A DNA stretch of 64,000 nt from Candidatus Bathyarchaeia archaeon (GTDB taxonomy: Archaea > Thermoproteota > Bathyarchaeia > Bathyarchaeales > Bathycorpusculaceae), in contig JBMFOB010000003.1 of the NCBI GenBank assembly GCA_049969855.1, forward strand, positions 26,524 to 90,523, read 5' to 3'. Positions 24,745 through 31,820 of the stretch are shown piece by piece; the stretch's first letter is position 1, and each line of letters starts with the position of its first letter. The notes under the pieces were generated by a model. That model saw nothing but the letters and a program-made list of their open reading frames with translations, ran no database searches and was not told the origin of the DNA. The translations under genes and the position numbers were made by a program.

Positions 24745-27426
24745 ATGGCGCAGAAACGTTTAGAAGATTTTGCCAAAATACAAGCTGAAAGTTTAAAGGA
24801 AAAAGAAGCGGAAGCCCTACCCTTCATGGAAGCCATAACAAAAGAAAAACAAAAACGTGCCTATCCACCTTTAGCGCCTGAAAACTTGCCGCCTTCATAT
24901 TTTATTTCTGCAACATATGATGGAAAAACTGGGAAAGCCCTAATCAAACTTTACGAGCCAGTTTCAAGCAAAATCTATTTCTGGTACGACAACACCGGGC
25001 ATAAGCCCTATTGCCTAACAAACCTTTCACCATTAGAGCTTGAAAAAATAAACCGTTTAATGCAACATCCAGGATTTGACCATTTTGAAATTGTTGACAA
25101 AATTGACCCCTTATTGGATAAGGCTGTGAAAGTGACAAAGATTGTGGCTAGAGACCCATTAGCCATCGGAGGACGCCCAAAAGGCTGCATAAGAGACATA
25201 ATCCCAGAAGATTTCCCAATGGTGGCGGAAACCCCAATTTCCCCAGAGCAAATCAAGGTTTGGGAATCAAAAATAAAGTATTACCAATCCTACATTTATG
25301 ATAGAAATCTTTTGCCTGGAATGATTTACGAAGTTAAAAATGGCAAACTAATTCTCAAAAATGTTGAAGAAGCAGAAAAAATGGTTAGACGAATAAAAGA
25401 AATTTTCAAGGAAGCCACAGCAGAGGAGCTACAACACATTGAAGAGTGGGCAAGACTTTTAGAGTATCCCGCCCCAAAATTTCTTTATGTAGCCCTTGAC
25501 ATAGAAGTTTACTCACCTGTTCCAACAAGGATGCCAGACCCAAGAGATGCTGCCTACCCAGTTGTCTGCGTATCCCTATATGGCTCAGATGGACAGAAAA
25601 GAGTTTTACTCCTAAAAAGAGAGGGAACCCGCGAAGGAACAGAACGCTTGCCTGCTGACGTAACCCTTGAGTATTTTGACTCGGAAGCAAAGCTGATAAA
25701 AGCTGTTTTTGATGCGCTTTGGAGTTATCCCTTTGTGGTAACCTTCAATGGCGATGACTTTGACTTGCGCTATTTGGCGCATAGAGCCCTTAACCACGGC
25801 TTCAGAAGAGACGAAGTTCCAATAGAAGTTGGCAGACGCGTATGCCTATTAAAGTATGGCGTGCACATTGACCTTTACAAGTTCTTCTTCAACCGTTCAA
25901 TCCAAATCTACGCTTTCAACAACCGTTATCGGGATGTAACCCTTGACGATGTTGGAAAAGCCCTAATTGGGATGGAAAAGATTAAACTGGAAAAAAACTT
26001 GGGCGAATTAACCTACACGGAACTCGCCAAATACTGTTTCAGAGATGCGGAAATCACTTTTAAACTTGCAAGCTTCGAAGACGAGTTGGTTATGAAGCTA
26101 ATTTTGGTTTTAGCCAGAATCAGCAGCATGCCAATGGAAGACGTAAGCCGCCAAGGAGTTTCCAGATGGATAAGAAACTTCATGCACCGCGAACACAGAA
26201 AAAGAAACATGCTCATCCCAAACGCAGAAGAAATAATTGCCGCAAAAGGAAAAGCAACCACAAAAGCCATAATTAAAGGCAAAAAATACAAAGGCGCAAT
26301 AGTTGTCGAACCAACTCCAGGCGTCCACTTTAACGTTTCAGTAATGGACTTCCCAAGTCTATACCCATCCATAATAAAAGTCTGGAACCTAGGCTACCAA
26401 TCCATACTATGCAAACATCCAGAATGCCGCAGCAACATAATTCCAGACACACCTCACTGGGTTTGCACAAAAAAACACGCCCTAGAAAGCCTCCTAATAG
26501 GCTCGCTCAGAGATTTGCGAGTTCAATGGTATAAACCAAAATCAAAAGACAAAACGTTACCAGCTGAAATTAGAAGTTGGTATAACATAATTCAAGGAGC
26601 TCTTAAAGTTATTTTGAACGCAAGCTATGGAGTTTTCGGAGCCGAAAGTTTCGACCTTTACTGTCCTCCAGTGGCAGAAGCAACAGCAGCCATCGCTAGG
26701 CATTCGCTAACCCAAATACTGAAGGAAGCGGAAGAGCTTAACATCCAAGTGCTTTACGGCGATACAGACAGCATATTCCTAAAAAATCCATCAAAAGAAC
26801 AAATTGAAAAACTAGCCCAATGGACAGAAAAAGCGCTAAAAATGAGTTTAGACGTAGATAAAGTGTATAGATATGCCGTTTTCAGTTCAAGAAAGAAAAA
26901 CTACTTGGGAGTTTTGGAAGACGGAACCGTTGACGTTAAGGGGTTAACTGGCAAGAAGAGGCACATACCCCTTTTCATAAAAAAGGCTTTTGACAAAATG
27001 AAAGAACGCCTAGCCATTGTAAAAACACCAGCCGACTTTGAAAAGGCAAAAAAGGACATTTGCGAAATCATCCGCGACTGCTACATGCGACTAAAAAGAA
27101 GAGAATGGGAAAACCTAAACGAACTTGCCTTCAACGTGGTTTTAGGCGAAGAACCAGAACACTACACAAAAACAACACCCCAACACGTGAGAGCCGCAAG
27201 AATACTAAAAGAAGGCGGAATGGAACTGAAAGCAGGCGACCTAATAAGCTTCGTAAAAGTCGTCAAAGAACCCCACGTAAAACCAGTTGAATTAGCAACA
27301 AAAAACGAAATAGACGTAGACAAATACATCGCCTATCTCCATTCAACATTCGACCAAGTTTTAGACGCGTTAGGCTTAGACTTCGACGAAATAATAGGAT
27401 TAACAAAACTGGAACGCTTCATGTAA
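24745..27426 (+). CDS. polB: Family B DNA polymerase (crenarchaeal PolB1-type)
   Basis: DIEV, FNGDDFD, DFPSLYPS, KVILNASYG, YGDTDS, KKNY; PIP-like QKRLEDF at N-terminus and TKLERFM at C-terminus. Confidence 0.96.
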   Translation: MAQKRLEDFAKIQAESLKEKEAEALPFMEAITKEKQKRAYPPLAPENLPPSYFISATYDGKTGKALIKLYEPVSSKIYFWYDNTGHKPYCLTNLSPLELEKINRLMQHPGFDHFEIVDKIDPLLDKAVKVTKIVARDPLAIGGRPKGCIRDIIPEDFPMVAETPISPEQIKVWESKIKYYQSYIYDRNLLPGMIYEVKNGKLILKNVEEAEKMVRRIKEIFKEATAEELQHIEEWARLLEYPAPKFLYVALDIEVYSPVPTRMPDPRDAAYPVVCVSLYGSDGQKRVLLLKREGTREGTERLPADVTLEYFDSEAKLIKAVFDALWSYPFVVTFNGDDFDLRYLAHRALNHGFRRDEVPIEVGRRVCLLKYGVHIDLYKFFFNRSIQIYAFNNRYRDVTLDDVGKALIGMEKIKLEKNLGELTYTELAKYCFRDAEITFKLASFEDELVMKLILVLARISSMPMEDVSRQGVSRWIRNFMHREHRKRNMLIPNAEEIIAAKGKATTKAIIKGKKYKGAIVVEPTPGVHFNVSVMDFPSLYPSIIKVWNLGYQSILCKHPECRSNIIPDTPHWVCTKKHALESLLIGSLRDLRVQWYKPKSKDKTLPAEIRSWYNIIQGALKVILNASYGVFGAESFDLYCPPVAEATAAIARHSLTQILKEAEELNIQVLYGDTDSIFLKNPSKEQIEKLAQWTEKALKMSLDVDKVYRYAVFSSRKKNYLGVLEDGTVDVKGLTGKKRHIPLFIKKAFDKMKERLAIVKTPADFEKAKKDICEIIRDCYMRLKRREWENLNELAFNVVLGEEPEHYTKTTPQHVRAARILKEGGMELKAGDLISFVKVVKEPHVKPVELATKNEIDVDKYIAYLHSTFDQVLDALGLDFDEIIGLTKLERFM

Positions 27427-27440
27427 AAACTGCATAGCCT

Positions 27441-27944
27441 TTAACTCTGATTTTTTCTCAGCGTATCTTTCACTATGCCGCTTCGGCGTAAACTTTCTTC
27501 CAATGCAAAGCCTAAAATGTTTATTGCTACAATTGAACCGACGAAGATGCCAAACACTCCAAGTTCAACTGGAACGTCAAATATCAGCCATAGATAGCCA
27601 CCAACAATCCCTGTTATAACCAGCGTTTCGACAAAACTTCCCAGAAACCTACGCACAAAATCTCCTCTGCCAACATACCACGCCAAAGTACATGCCAAGA
27701 AGTTTGCAACAGTCCCCCCAACAACGTCGATAATGCCTAATCCTCCGTAAACATTTGCGACCAAACAGCCCAAACCGAATCCAATAGCGCTTGGCAACCC
27801 AAACATCATTGATAATGGCAGTAATGCATCAGCCACTCTTACTTGATAAATTCCAAAACTTATAGGCGCCAGAAGAATCACACCAACTGCATAGAGTGCA
27901 GCAAAAATCGCTGCCAAAGTCAAATTTTTAGCGTCAAATTTCAC
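27441..27944 (-). CDS. queT: QueT-family queuosine-precursor transporter (ECF S component)
   Basis: AAIFAALY...APISFG.YQVRVADAL, GCLVAN, DVVGGT; GTG start 5 nt after GGAGGTG SD. Confidence 0.88.
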   Translation of the reverse strand: MKFDAKNLTLAAIFAALYAVGVILLAPISFGIYQVRVADALLPLSMMFGLPSAIGFGLGCLVANVYGGLGIIDVVGGTVANFLACTLAWYVGRGDFVRRFLGSFVETLVITGIVGGYLWLIFDVPVELGVFGIFVGSIVAINILGFALEESLRRSGIVKDTLRKNQS

Positions 27945-28010
27945 ATTTTCACCTCCTACACCGGGGTTTTTATGGCGGAACGGGTGGAGGTCCACTCACC
28001 CGCCACACTT
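27945..28010 (-). promoter_or_regulatory. Structured GC-rich 5' leader of queT, candidate riboswitch
   Basis: GUGGCGG...CCGCCAU stem, internal ACCUCC anti-SD, AAAAA tail, SD GGAGGUG; TATA-like AATTAATA about 25 nt upstream. Confidence 0.55.
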
Positions 28011-28071
28011 CTATCCACAAATTCTTAGGCTATTAATTTTACTGAAACAACTAATCAGCCAAAACATTTAC

Positions 28072-28548
28072 TTACTGTTTCTTCGCCTCAGTTTCAGCTT
28101 GAACCTCCACAGATTCTGCGGCTTCTGGGGATATTTTCACTGTTACATCTTCAACTGGAATTCCCTCTTTATGTGAAAAGAGCAAATCCTGAGGTGGCGG
28201 AGGAACATTAAGTATCGTAGATAGAAGATACATGGCTGTAAACGCTGTTTGATAAATTCTTTGAAAGACATATGGCACTTTTGTTTCTGGATCAACCTCC
28301 AACATTTTATTTATCTCAGCATCTTTACCGCTTAATGTTGCCGTTCCTTCAACCTCAAACTTTACAAGGCTTGGCTTAGTCGTCAAAAAAAGTTTAAAAT
28401 CTAAAATAACCATCTGGCTTTTGCGTTCTCTTTCCTCCAATTTTGCTTTAACATCAAAATTTACACTCTCAGCTCCGCTCTTAACATCTAACCGAACACC
28501 TACAAGACTGGTTATTTCTACTTTAACCGAAGCATTTGGAACATACAA
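28072..28548 (-). CDS. Conserved hypothetical protein, possibly SecB-like fold
   Basis: Alternating beta-strand pattern followed by a helix ending LNVPPP; fold guess only. Confidence 0.6.
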   Translation of the reverse strand: MYVPNASVKVEITSLVGVRLDVKSGAESVNFDVKAKLEERERKSQMVILDFKLFLTTKPSLVKFEVEGTATLSGKDAEINKMLEVDPETKVPYVFQRIYQTAFTAMYLLSTILNVPPPPQDLLFSHKEGIPVEDVTVKISPEAAESVEVQAETEAKKQ

Positions 28549-28679: not shown

Positions 28680-29540
28680 CTACGAAAACCAATAAAACAA
28701 CAAAGCAGCAGAAGTAGAAGCCGCCATTAAAAGCGAAATTGCCACAACCACTTGTCGCTCCGTCAAACGCCTATGATAAGTAATAAGGGTAACAAGACTT
28801 CTTCTATTATCAGAAAAAAGTTTTTCCCCATCAAAAGAAACGCGAGCTTTGGCTCTAAAAAAGAAGTAATTCAACAAAATCAACGAAGAATTAAAAACGT
28901 AAGGCAGAATAGAAATAAGCAAAACAGATTTTAAATCCGAAATTATGGCAAACGCTGCCAATGTTATCCCAATAGCGAAAGACCCAGTATTTCCAACGAA
29001 AATTCTGCCCTGAAAATTAAAAAAGCACAGCAAAAGCCAAACGATTAAGGGAACAAGCAAAAGGACAGCATGCGCTCCTGAAATAGCCATCAACCCCATT
29101 ATCACTATTGCTGGCGGAATCGTCTCTAAACCATTCAACCCGCCAAGCTGATTCACAGTATTAGTAGTCACAGTTACAATTAACGGAATAACTATGAAAT
29201 AATATGAAAGCCCAAAATCCACAGACCCGAAAATGGGAAAAGTTATAGCTGTACGTAGCCCAAGCCGTGTCGCCAATGAAACAAGCGGTATAGACGCTAT
29301 AATGGGAAAGAAAGCTTTATAACGCCACCGCAAATCCATCCAGTCGTCAAGTAAACCCATAAAACCTCCAAACAAAATGCAAACAGCCAAAGTCAAAGCA
29401 GAAGAAACATTATCGGTTGAAGACCGAAAATATTCAAGAATGAAAAGATACAACGCACTAGCCAAGACATAGATTACGCCTAAACCATTTGGAACTAAAG
29501 GATTGTTTGGCTTATGCTGATCTGGAACCTTTGGGAACAA
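28680..29540 (-). CDS. GT4/MraY-family polyprenyl-phosphate GlcNAc-1-P transferase (AglH/GPT-like), lacking the first TM helix
   Basis: DQHKP..P.VP..LG, GLLDDWMDL.W..K, NTVNQLGGLNGLE, FVGNTGS. Confidence 0.85.
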   Translation of the reverse strand: MFPKVPDQHKPNNPLVPNGLGVIYVLASALYLFILEYFRSSTDNVSSALTLAVCILFGGFMGLLDDWMDLRWRYKAFFPIIASIPLVSLATRLGLRTAITFPIFGSVDFGLSYYFIVIPLIVTVTTNTVNQLGGLNGLETIPPAIVIMGLMAISGAHAVLLLVPLIVWLLLCFFNFQGRIFVGNTGSFAIGITLAAFAIISDLKSVLLISILPYVFNSSLILLNYFFFRAKARVSFDGEKLFSDNRRSLVTLITYHRRLTERQVVVAISLLMAASTSAALLFYWFS

Positions 29541-29555
29541 TGGCTTACCTTCCTT

Positions 29556-31820
29556 CTATTCTGGATATTCAATACGATAGAGACAAACCAACGGAATGAT
29601 TCCACCATAATTACTACTAGCATCCGACGGAGTAAGTGTTAGTCCAGAAATAAATTCCGGCACAAAATATTGCGGTTCAACGCCAGCTTCGTCTGGGCTT
29701 ATTTGATTTTGGCTGCACCATAACTGTTTAGCCCAACTCATTAATTTGTATATGGTGGTGCTCTTCCCAATGTCATTCCACTCCCACCTATTAGTTTGAT
29801 TGTTATAGCTCCCAAACATCGTCTCGTTAGTCCAAGCTGAGTTTTCGTCAAGAAAATGATATTTGTATATGAAGTCGTCTCGTGCCTGTCCAGAGATTCT
29901 AGCCATCCACATCCACTTTCCTTCATCACCATATCCAGCCCACGTCGCATAATACGAACCGCCAGATTGAGATTGCCCTAATCCAAGCGTTGTGAAAACT
30001 AGGATGTACTTTGCATCGTAAAGCTTCAGCATTTTCAATGCTTGGGTTTCGTTAGCCATGAATATGAAGCCTATATTCTCTATTTGCGTAGCATTTATTG
30101 TTGCGTTATCCGCAAGCGATGTAACATTGCCAAGAATTGACAGCCAATATCCGTAGTCCCACCATGCACAAACAACTTTTTCACCTATTGGCTTAGGTCC
30201 CAAGTTGCTTCTCAACCAGTTCAGCATATCTAACCACTCTTTAACAGGCTGGTTAGGTGATATTGGAAGACTGCCTGCTGAAATCGTAGTTGGCGCATAT
30301 GCTTGTCTATAAACCCTTGGCACACCCCCTGATTGTGGCGAAAAAGCAAAGTTCGCCATCAAAATTAGGAATATTAAGAAGATTGCTGTTCCGCTGAATT
30401 CTTTTCCAACATGTTCTAAGCCATACTTCTTCTTTGTAATTAATTTTGGCGGTTCTTTCAGCACTGTGTAAAAGGGCTTTAGAACACCAATTATGCCACT
30501 GGATGCTACAAGGCCAAAGGCTGGAGCCATAAGCACAAATAACCGCACCATAGAACATGCAAAGTAAAGCGATGTTATACCGAAAACTATCATAAACAAG
30601 TTTTTATTGGTTGGATTCCTCAACAGGAAATACAAACCAGCTAGGAAGAATATTATTCCTATGCCAAACTCATAGTATATGGAACCCCAAGCCGAAATTC
30701 TATGTTCAGCCACGGACTCTACAAGCGGTTCCTCCGCCCTCGCAAATGGATTAATTACAGCAAAGAATTTGCCAAGGCTCCCAAGACGCTCAAAATGCCA
30801 CAAAACAACAAATCCGCCTATTAACAAACAAATGAAAACAATAGCAAACACCATCTTCATCTTAGTCGATGATATATTACGTAGAATTTCGACAAGACAT
30901 AATAGAACGAAAAATCCTGCAACTAACATTATAACTGAGCCTGTCAGGTATCCTAAGGAGAGATATGGAGTGCTTACCGCCATAAATAAGCCTGTTCCAA
31001 AGGTTATGGCATAAGATAAAAAGAGACGCTGTGTATATCGCATCATCAAAATTAGGATGAAAACGAAAAGTATCGTTAACCCAATCGGATAAAGTGCTGC
31101 ACCCCACGCGCAAATGAAATATCCTAAAGCTAATCCAGAGCCAATTGCATATTTTAAAGTTGAACTAAGCGGTCTTTCATCTTCAATTGACCTTAAAAAC
31201 ATATACGTAAACAAAAGCAAGGCAACTATGCCCACTGTCTCATCATCGAAAAAGCCTAGGGAAGTTCTCTGAATATAGGATGGACTTAAAGCCAGAAAAA
31301 GAGCTGCAAGAAATCCAGTTGGAGCACCTCCAATGTCTTTACCGATAAAATAAATTATTAAACATGCCAGAGTTCCCAGAATTGCTGGGAAAAGGGCGCA
31401 GAAGCTCATTACGTCAATGTTTACGCCCAACATAGAGATTATGTCATATAGAAAAGCTGCAGTCATTGGTAATGAAGGATAGGACATTCTCATGTTTATT
31501 CCATCGGGGTACCATCGTTGATGATCAACCCATCCCGGAGGCATGTAAGGTGAAAATAAGCCATTTTTCACCATGTAATTTGTAAGACTATAATAATAGT
31601 AGGGGTCAAATTCTGAAAGGAGTAAAGTGTTTTTTCCTTCTGTTATTTCCCAACGCAAAGGTAAGATGCGGATTGTGAAGGCAACAAATAATATGAGAAG
31701 CAAAATTGAAAGACTTATCATTGAACCGTGGCTAATCTTGACGCGTAGTTTCCCCAAATTTTTTATTCCGTTTCTGATGCCTTCTTTTGATATGGCTTTG
31801 CGGATGTCCATTAAGTTCAT
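29556..31820 (-). CDS. aglB: Oligosaccharyltransferase AglB (STT3)
   Basis: EFDPYY, GFFDDE, SVAEH, WWDYG, LADNAT. Confidence 0.96.
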   Translation of the reverse strand: MNLMDIRKAISKEGIRNGIKNLGKLRVKISHGSMISLSILLLILFVAFTIRILPLRWEITEGKNTLLLSEFDPYYYYSLTNYMVKNGLFSPYMPPGWVDHQRWYPDGINMRMSYPSLPMTAAFLYDIISMLGVNIDVMSFCALFPAILGTLACLIIYFIGKDIGGAPTGFLAALFLALSPSYIQRTSLGFFDDETVGIVALLLFTYMFLRSIEDERPLSSTLKYAIGSGLALGYFICAWGAALYPIGLTILFVFILILMMRYTQRLFLSYAITFGTGLFMAVSTPYLSLGYLTGSVIMLVAGFFVLLCLVEILRNISSTKMKMVFAIVFICLLIGGFVVLWHFERLGSLGKFFAVINPFARAEEPLVESVAEHRISAWGSIYYEFGIGIIFFLAGLYFLLRNPTNKNLFMIVFGITSLYFACSMVRLFVLMAPAFGLVASSGIIGVLKPFYTVLKEPPKLITKKKYGLEHVGKEFSGTAIFLIFLILMANFAFSPQSGGVPRVYRQAYAPTTISAGSLPISPNQPVKEWLDMLNWLRSNLGPKPIGEKVVCAWWDYGYWLSILGNVTSLADNATINATQIENIGFIFMANETQALKMLKLYDAKYILVFTTLGLGQSQSGGSYYATWAGYGDEGKWMWMARISGQARDDFIYKYHFLDENSAWTNETMFGSYNNQTNRWEWNDIGKSTTIYKLMSWAKQLWCSQNQISPDEAGVEPQYFVPEFISGLTLTPSDASSNYGGIIPLVCLYRIEYPE

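Follow-up and report, generated by a model that had tools for sequence, protein, structure and literature searches.

A conserved leader before archaeal queT genes as a candidate 7-deazaguanine riboswitch of an undescribed class

The stretch of 64,000 nucleotides analysed here (the window; positions 26,524 to 90,523 of contig JBMFOB010000003.1, assembly GCA_049969855.1, from a Candidatus Bathyarchaeia archaeon) contains a queT gene preceded on the minus strand by a GC-rich leader of about 60 bases (28006-27951), with a TATA-like box on one side and the GTG start codon of queT on the other. This arrangement raises the question of whether the leader is a regulatory RNA and, if so, which signal it reads. 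The original prediction, made from the sequence alone, had proposed a translational OFF switch of a possibly new riboswitch class that senses preQ0 or preQ1. The comparative analysis described below supports this proposal: the leader is probably a metabolite-sensing riboswitch of an undescribed archaeal class, most likely sensing preQ0 or a very close 7-deazaguanine, a reading to which we assign a probability of about 70%.

The element lies in a 127-nt spacer on the minus strand, which separates queT from an upstream open reading frame (ORF) for 158 amino acids ending at 28072. The queT coding sequence (27441-27944, minus strand, GTG at 27942-27944) specifies a 167-aa S component of the ECF type and matches Pfam PF06177 (QueT) with 93.7 bits (E 1.6e-26, cut-off 33.7), in agreement with the earlier naming of the downstream gene; in the proposed model it would be the regulated gene. 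PMC5372724 describes queT genes as predicted transporters of preQ1 precursors that sometimes stand behind preQ1 riboswitches.

The minus-strand sequence is as originally written. The box AAAATTAATAG (28030-28040), read from the sequence as part of a predicted queT promoter, is followed by the first hairpin after 23 nt, close to the 25 nt first given for the GC-rich island, and the order of the parts is then GUGGCGG, GU, GAGUGG, ACCUCCACCCG, UU, CCGCCAU, AAAAACCC and CGGUGUAGGAGGU. GUGGCGG (28000-28006) and CCGCCAU (27972-27978) are the two strands of stem 1 (P1), the outer stem of the original prediction, and their first pair is the expected G-U. Loop 1 (27992-27999) combines a near-invariant G-U with GAGUGG. 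It is followed by the 5' strand of stem 2, ACCUCCACCCG (27981-27991), which holds the anti-Shine-Dalgarno sequence CCUCC, and by loop 2, a U-U at the junction of both stems (27979-27980) within the invariant CCGUUCCGC. Loop 3 (27964-27971) is an A-rich linker, directly read in the window as AUAAAAACCC, that leads from stem 1 to the stem 2 3' strand and has a conserved AAA(C)CC-C at its end. The 3' strand itself, CGGUGUAGGAGGU (27951-27963), includes the Shine-Dalgarno (SD) sequence GGAGG (27952-27956), and five bases lie between the end of the element at 27951 and the start codon. As claimed at the outset, the loop strand is complementary to the strand that covers the SD sequence: ACCUCCACCCG and CGGUGUAGGAGGU form 11 pairs with two single-base bulges (-15.6 kcal/mol). 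An alternative hairpin, P2, can be drawn between GUGG in loop 1 (27992-27995) and CCAC (27984-27987), which is also part of the 5' strand of stem 2. At minimum free energy (-26.2 kcal/mol for 86 nt), the window leader folds into P1 and a small hairpin. Because this fold is only modestly unusual, the window sequence by itself proves little, and conservation becomes decisive.

Protein searches returned QueT homologues from 38 of 41 related genomes, and the leader is present at all 30 QueT loci returned from relatives, although their QueT proteins share only 30-76% identity. In 29 of the 30 loci it immediately precedes the matched gene; in L011 it precedes the first gene of a queT-queC-queT operon. 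L078 (CP122380.1, Candidatus Bathyarchaeum tardum) likewise has queT, queC and queT behind the motif. Thus, the leader is conserved far beyond its protein and precedes both orthologous and paralogous queT genes; conservation upstream of orthologous queT had been named beforehand as a check. In the alignment of the 30 sequences, GCGGGU, CCGUUCCGC, AAA, CCC (the latter two in 30/30) and part of the SD sequence are invariant. GCGGGU is also invariant in every row of A5, an alignment of 98 diverse sequences, and the exceptions seen to CCGUUCCGC are one GAU (L059) and a 4-nt junction in two Asgard copies (L202 and L203).

A covariance model built from the 30 relatives (R1) finds a single real match in the 1.28-Mb genome of the window, namely the window copy (81.4 bits, E 4.9e-20); the next-best match reaches 16.7 bits (E 0.14). 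Phylum sampling covered the window's phylum and one Asgard phylum, with Euryarchaeota and DPANN outside it. Of 151 genomes representing the window's phylum, 29 have an R1 match, and these are spread over several families and classes. A second sample of 151 genomes, drawn from the phylum to which one Asgard genome belongs, includes 20 with the motif; QueT follows it in 11 of the 12 loci fetched, and the contig of the remaining locus ends too early. An exact-pattern scan that covered one genome per prokaryotic species yielded at least 119 stretches; 72 of the 80 first-listed loci score at least 38.8 bits with R1, and 29 of 42 further loci at least 42.7 bits. Among the matches listed, most record titles are Bathyarchaeia or Bathyarchaeota, and others are Methanomethylicota, Nitrososphaerota/Nitrosopumilales, Candidatus Methylarchaceae, Promethearchaeota and Hodarchaeota. 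Altogether, at least 153 unique motif instances of archaeal type were gathered.

Several apparent outliers were set aside. The bacterial-labelled pattern matches examined (for example L073, L086, L087, L090 and L159) score at most 30.5 bits with no QueT downstream and are regarded as chance matches, as expected from the size of the pattern. L155, titled Krumholzibacteriaceae bacterium, scores 56.9 bits, and its genome carries the archaeal ribosomal protein L31e, which was detected only in the 4 archaeal genomes among 14 control genomes. L160, titled Methanocella, was rejected as a euryarchaeal case, given that the phylum sample around it returned exactly the matches of the window's phylum; the record titles of both L155 and L160 do not seem to reflect the origin of the contigs. 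L060 (23 bits, followed by a 293-aa protein without a Pfam family) was dropped as unverified.

The genes behind the motif form a coherent set. queT is the first gene in 140 of the 153 instances, with queC directly next in 46 of these; it lies slightly further downstream in three, and queC is followed by queT in one. Another gene comes first and queC later in two instances, neither queT nor queC is found in four, and the contig ends too early in three. Among the less common arrangements, the motif in L139 is followed by a QueE-like radical-SAM protein, whose best NCBIfam matches are QueE models below their cut-offs, and then by a GATase-QueC fusion (155 bits with TIGR00364, cut-off 150.3), and in L076 it also precedes a gene for a QueE-like protein. 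In L125 (3770-5169, minus strand) and L151 (1680-3091, minus strand), the motif precedes genes for a DUF5591/ArcS-like protein of 223-226 aa and a RaSEA-like radical-SAM protein. The first proteins of these two operons consist only of the DUF5591/ArcS-like domain and are 67% identical to each other; all family matches in the two operons are below, in part far below, the curated cut-offs. This pair may represent a reduced or variant archaeosine-type synthase under the same control. In L097 (5727-6557, minus strand), a 277-aa protein without a Pfam or NCBIfam match is encoded first, followed by QueC and a protein with a phosphoribosyltransferase domain; the 277-aa protein is a candidate for a new 7-deazaguanine transporter or enzyme. 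L108, the fourth instance without queT or queC, has only short ORFs behind the motif. The motif thus delineates a regulon that comprises genes for 7-deazaguanine transport and preQ0 synthesis as well as archaeosine-related genes, as a riboswitch for this pathway would be expected to do. The presence of queC, QueE-like, GATase-QueC and ArcS-like/RaSEA-like genes behind it provides independent support for a 7-deazaguanine signal. In the neighbourhoods of the 153 instances, no gene besides the regulated ones consistently adjoins the motif.

The gene content of the host genomes fits such a signal. The window's genome, which is 93% complete, encodes the tRNA-guanine(15) transglycosylase TgtA (TIGR00432, 573.7 bits, cut-off 350), and an EcfT/CbiQ homologue is present elsewhere on the window's contig. 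Profile searches of this genome did not find QueC, QueD or QueE: the only matches to QueC models are two proteins of the GMP-synthase type and an asparagine synthase, and the best match to a QueE model is the ribonucleotide-reductase activase NrdG. The presence of TgtA together with the absence of detectable QueC, QueD and QueE fits a dependence on preQ0 salvage, and, as far as incomplete genomes allow such a statement, archaea of the window's type seem to obtain their preQ0 by scavenging. Such a salvage route is considered likely in archaea, according to PMC5372724. True QueC (more than 200 bits) occurs in eight of the 41 relatives, in all eight just behind a motif-led queT, and the ORFs overlap where inspected (for example L190, 1566-2701, and L011, 338-2022). 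The QueT subtype linked to QueC is only about 29% identical to that of the window. QueD was detected in one of the 41 relatives and in none of the eight that carry QueC. The queT-queC operons in genomes without detected QueD suggest salvage of 7-carboxy-7-deazaguanine (CDG), the substrate of QueC, which would be imported via the QueC-linked QueT subtype.

The pairing pattern expected for an H-type pseudoknot, in which P1 and a long-range helix between the anti-SD loop strand and the SD strand are connected by the A-rich linker, is supported by covariation. The inner four pairs of P1, GCGG/CCGC, are invariant in all 98 sequences of A5, and the outer two pairs covary through all Watson-Crick types. 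Pair 3-43 is GC in 75 sequences, AU in nine, GU in seven, CG in three, UA in two and unpaired in two, while pair 2-44 is UA in 34, AU in 19, CG in five, UG in three, GC in two, GU in one and unpaired in 34. Stem 2 spans the strand that ends at the G before the invariant UU and the strand that starts at the last C of CCC, and the duplex starts exactly at these ends in nearly all of the 27 sequences inspected. It is 8-11 bp long, and its mean duplex energy over 119 sequences is -16.6 kcal/mol, compared with -10.8 kcal/mol when the 3' strand is shuffled and -12.9 kcal/mol when it is reversed; the real duplex beats the mean shuffle in 117 of the 119. In A5, which was aligned with a covariance model of stem 2 (R2), 94.5% of the cells of P1 and stem 2 are paired, as against 87.6% in shuffles (0/500 reach the observed value) and 40-61% with slid partners. 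The covariation score of 0.241 exceeds that of shuffles (0.113) and slid partners (at most 0.071), and double-sided changes occur in 8 of 16 pairs.

Compensations in stem 2 can also be read independently of any alignment. They include CCUCCU/AGGAGG, CACCUCC/GGAGGUG, ACAUCUC/GAGAUGU (L123), UUCCGAC/GUCGGAA (L056), GUCUC/GAGAC (L133), CACCUC/GAGGUG (L167) and UUCC/GGAA (L125), and in Asgard genomes CUCGCA/UGCGAG (L202 and L203), with a G-C flip within the helix, and CCCAUCCG/CGGGUGGG (L200). When strands were exchanged between sequences, a test that needs no alignment, the native combination paired better than the exchanged one in 8,858 of 11,445 comparisons, with a mean free-energy difference of -3.7 kcal/mol; such counts are inflated by relatedness. 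Thus, both the outer stem and the loop-to-SD pairing foreseen from the window alone covary across lineages. Loop 3 varies from 1 to 16 nt upstream of AAA, and the shortest version seen, the 49-nt copy in L200, is reduced to P1, a 4-nt loop 1, an 8-bp stem 2, UU and AUAAACCC.

The position of the element relative to the promoter is equally regular. Across 158 unique upstream regions, AT content is highest between positions -37 and -29, counted from the G of GCGGGU, with fractions of 0.75-0.89 compared with about 0.5-0.65 at other positions; this peak marks a putative TATA box at a fixed distance from P1. The distance from TATA box to transcription start is about 26 nt in archaea, and the start is therefore predicted a few nucleotides before P1, which would place the leader within the transcript. 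In the window, an ORF stays open from a GTG at 27995 through the motif, as a coding N-terminal extension of QueT would require. This explanation is ruled out by in-frame stops ahead of the start codon in 41 of 49 leaders and by indels that change loop lengths by 1-2 nt among loci.

These features suggest the following mechanism. The sensor would be an H-type pseudoknot with P1 (NN-GCGG/CCGC-NN) as stem 1, while stem 2 would form between the strand in the P1 loop (the anti-SD sequence plus ...CCG) and the segment past the A-rich linker (CGG...GGAGGU), and would thus include the ribosome-binding site. The near-invariant unpaired G-U of loop 1, U-U of loop 2 and AAA(C)CCC of loop 3 may together make up the ligand pocket at the stem junction. 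The junction of the two stems is the binding site in known preQ1 pseudoknots, and by this likeness the ligand is proposed to bind there, perhaps paired to one of the C residues of loop 3, with the A-rich linker possibly placed in the minor groove of P1. Ligand binding would stabilise the pseudoknot, sequester the SD sequence and lower translation of queT, and in relatives also of queC and other genes. In the absence of ligand, P2 would capture part of the anti-SD strand and leave the SD sequence free.

P2 and stem 2 are mutually exclusive, because the 3' strand of P2 is shared with stem 2. For the window copy, rough energies are -16.6 kcal/mol for P1 plus P2, -10.3 kcal/mol for P1 alone and -15.6 kcal/mol for the stem 2 duplex; judging from these hairpin and duplex values, which are not pseudoknot energies, the two states are plausibly close in energy. 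P2 is paired in 95.5% of cells with a few double-sided changes: one pair is GC in 81 sequences, GU in six, UA in two and AU in one, another UA in 81, GC in four, UG in three and CG in one, and a change from U-A to C-G in L076 is an example of compensation. The original prediction had instead named an inner stem, CGGGUG/CACCCG, as the competitor of the outer stem. This pairing is possible in 96% of cells, no better than in shuffles, and no pair ever changes on both sides. It is kept only as a possible third conformer, and P2 is the better-supported competitor of the SD-occluding stem 2.

Several observations weigh against this interpretation or limit it. Folded by itself, the window leader has only a slight advantage over shuffled sequences (z -2.14; 7 of 200 shuffles do equally well). 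The pair counts of A5 lean towards stem 2, to which the covariance model fitted this alignment, and about 85 of the 146 double-sided cells represent one inherited register shift, CCUCC/GGAGG versus CCUCCC/GGGAGG. Foreign strands paired better than the sequence's own in 2,280 of the 11,445 swaps. The signal at one anchored position of stem 2 is modest (U faces a partner A in 7 of 12 cases and C a partner G in 50 of 133; Fisher p = 0.018, uncorrected for relatedness). The invariant core is the part expected to hold the ligand, so its tertiary contacts are without covariation support. L200 and L101 are too short for P2, which thus cannot be essential, and the lack of room for it in L200 indicates that P2 is an accessory of the expression platform rather than part of the sensor. 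Finally, the enzymes encoded by the operons of L125 and L151 act after preQ0 has been inserted into tRNA, which fits poorly with end-product repression by preQ0.

Whether the element belongs to a known family was addressed with Rfam 15 (4,227 families, including preQ1-I, -II and -III), searched with cmscan at E values up to 10. Neither the region 27700-28300 of the window (601 nt) nor 14 diverse motif loci (65,026 nt) contain a match to a preQ1 or purine-type family; the only matches there are weak and unrelated (snoRNA-like and a tRNA fragment). The expectation that the element would not match preQ1-I, and might represent a new class, thus held for the families in Rfam 15. The literature covered describes neither a queT or preQ riboswitch from archaea nor the core sequence; most subscription journals and the supplements lay outside this coverage. 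The element has the general features of riboswitches: it is a conserved, structured 5' leader of the genes of one pathway across distant lineages, and it combines covarying secondary structure with the conserved unpaired bases G-U, U-U, AAA and CCC. By its predicted topology it would work like preQ1-I and preQ1-II, but it lacks the features that define membership of either family, and it is filed as a new class within a known kind, the SD-sequestering pseudoknot riboswitches for 7-deazaguanines.

The closest known system is preQ1-I (RF00522), in which an H-type pseudoknot is combined with an A-rich tail and stem 2 overlaps the SD sequence. The element shares with it the kinds of genes (queT and the queC/queE pathway) and probably also the H-type pseudoknot, the A-rich linker after stem 1, a stem 2 that contains the ribosome-binding site and the translational OFF logic. 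In preQ1-I, however, the aptamer comprises about 34 nt, stem 2 has about 4 bp, and the ligand-pairing C is located at the 3' end of loop 2. In contrast, the archaeal element measures about 50-70 nt (49 nt in L200), and its stem 2 is longer and contains the full anti-SD sequence. Its extended loop 1 is able to fold into a competing hairpin, loop 2 consists of U-U, and a conserved CCC closes the linker on the 3' side. Moreover, the element occurs in archaea (Thermoproteota-type and Asgard genomes), and since TgtA uses preQ0 and not preQ1 as its substrate, preQ0 is the probable ligand.

preQ1-II (RF01054), the COG4708/queT motif of Lactobacillales, resembles the element in its position directly before queT, its SD-sequestering pseudoknot and a hairpin of variable size. 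Conserved sequences and taxonomic range differ, and the variable hairpin is found in the 3' linker of preQ1-II but in loop 1 of the element, where it competes with the pseudoknot. preQ1-III (RF02680) shares the association with queT, the pseudoknot and a 7-deazaguanine ligand, which is only predicted for the element, but is much larger and has its SD-pairing element outside the aptamer, whereas the SD sequence of the archaeal element is inside stem 2. Very few riboswitches are known to work in archaea, and those that do (TPP and fluoride) are shared with bacteria. The element is similar to them as a cis-acting archaeal leader RNA with a TATA box at a fixed distance, and would, if confirmed, add one more metabolite sensor at work in archaea; unlike them, it was found in archaeal genomes only, among the matches listed.

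A riboswitch of the same architecture might bind a ligand other than preQ0, such as CDG, preQ1, free archaeosine base, another 7-deazapurine or guanine. The sequence itself identifies no ligand, the queT-queC operons in genomes without detected QueD point to imported CDG, and the ArcS-like/RaSEA-like operons would fit feedback by a product downstream of preQ0. On the other hand, preQ0 is the compound common to all associated genes, as the presumed cargo of QueT where QueC is absent, the product of QueC, the end of the QueE-QueC branch and the substrate of TgtA. Against preQ1 in particular, QueF, which makes it, is to our knowledge outside the archaeosine pathway in most archaea (no search for QueF was made). 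We therefore consider a different ligand unlikely, although it deserves to be kept in mind, and preQ0 the best candidate. The invariant core with its conserved unpaired bases would also suit the binding site of a conserved protein that controls access to the SD sequence, for example TgtA, which the window's genome encodes, if it mistook the leader for one of its substrates; a divergently placed TGT-like gene also adjoins the queT-queC operon of L190. However, only the regulated genes consistently adjoin the motif, the element is retained in Thermoproteota and Asgard genomes alike although its flanking genes differ, no tRNA-like Rfam match at E values up to 10 falls on the motif, and known small-molecule sensors are likewise compact pseudoknots that have an A-rich linker and enclose the SD sequence in stem 2. 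A protein-operated leader thus seems improbable, and we infer that a small molecule is sensed.

It is still less probable that the element is a very divergent member of preQ1-I, enlarged by an insertion in the loop. The predicted order of strands is the same (stem 1, the 5' strand of stem 2 in the loop, the 3' strand of stem 1, an A-rich linker and an SD-overlapping 3' strand of stem 2), as is the gene context of queT, queC and queE. The empty preQ1-I search, over 601 nt of the window and 65 kb at the 14 loci, the stem 2 of 8-11 bp, the U-U loop 2 and the run of C at the end of loop 3, compared with about 4 bp and a C in loop 2, speak for a separate class. Ligand-independent masking of the SD sequence by an RNA thermometer or a constitutive damper, a coding extension, or a GC-rich hairpin arising by chance can hardly account for the data. 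The open frame through the motif in the window and the unimpressive fold score are compatible with them, but the stops and indels of the leaders, the single real copy in the window's genome and the placement of the motif before 7-deazaguanine genes across genomes are not what they would predict, and a thermometer has no need of invariant unpaired bases. A riboswitch for preQ0 or a close relative therefore remains the preferred reading.

The surroundings of the window copy differ in kind. The upstream gene (28072-28548, minus strand) encodes the 158-aa protein, for which no family scores above threshold (weak Pfam LNS2 match, E 0.0096), and its 3' end is conserved together with the leader in genomes of the same genus. 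A match to snoZ39 (C/D-box snoRNA-like, 21.6 bits, E 0.19) on the opposite strand within this gene (28167-28256) is probably noise. Further genes are a family-B DNA polymerase-like ORF of 893 aa (24745-27426, plus strand; judged by eye from the translation), a glycosyltransferase family 4 protein according to Pfam (28680-29540, minus strand) and a 754-aa membrane protein that by eye resembles an oligosaccharyltransferase (29556-31820, minus strand); for these three flanking genes, no link to 7-deazaguanine metabolism is apparent. In four genomes of the same genus (L016, L018, L021 and L025), the leader and the upstream gene are near-identical to those of the window, and the L018 leader is identical through the SD sequence. 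The QueT proteins of these four are only 39-47% identical to that of the window and have about 186 instead of 167 aa, while those of L002 and L003, from two other genera, are 73-76% identical to it. This pattern suggests that one QueT subtype has been exchanged for another here, with the start codon as the breakpoint.

If the preferred reading is correct and the class is confined to archaea, archaea would have evolved metabolite-sensing RNAs of their own, and the element would be a fourth structurally distinct solution for 7-deazaguanine recognition beside preQ1-I, -II and -III, as well as a compact translational switch of about 50-60 nt usable as a genetic tool in archaea. A bolder proposal, to which we incline with somewhat less confidence, is that this is the first riboswitch class confined to archaea, a preQ0 sensor common to TACK-type lineages and Asgard archaea that is either older than their split or mobile, and that controls the salvage of 7-deazaguanines, an economy on which an entire order of Bathyarchaeia seems to rely. 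The sampled Bathyarchaeia carry tRNA modification of the TgtA type, mostly without QueC and QueD, and seem dependent on scavenged preQ0 or CDG. The leader would mark the genes involved, including several QueT subtypes and the 277-aa protein of L097, and its strong conservation makes the motif usable for finding 7-deazaguanine genes in uncultured archaea.

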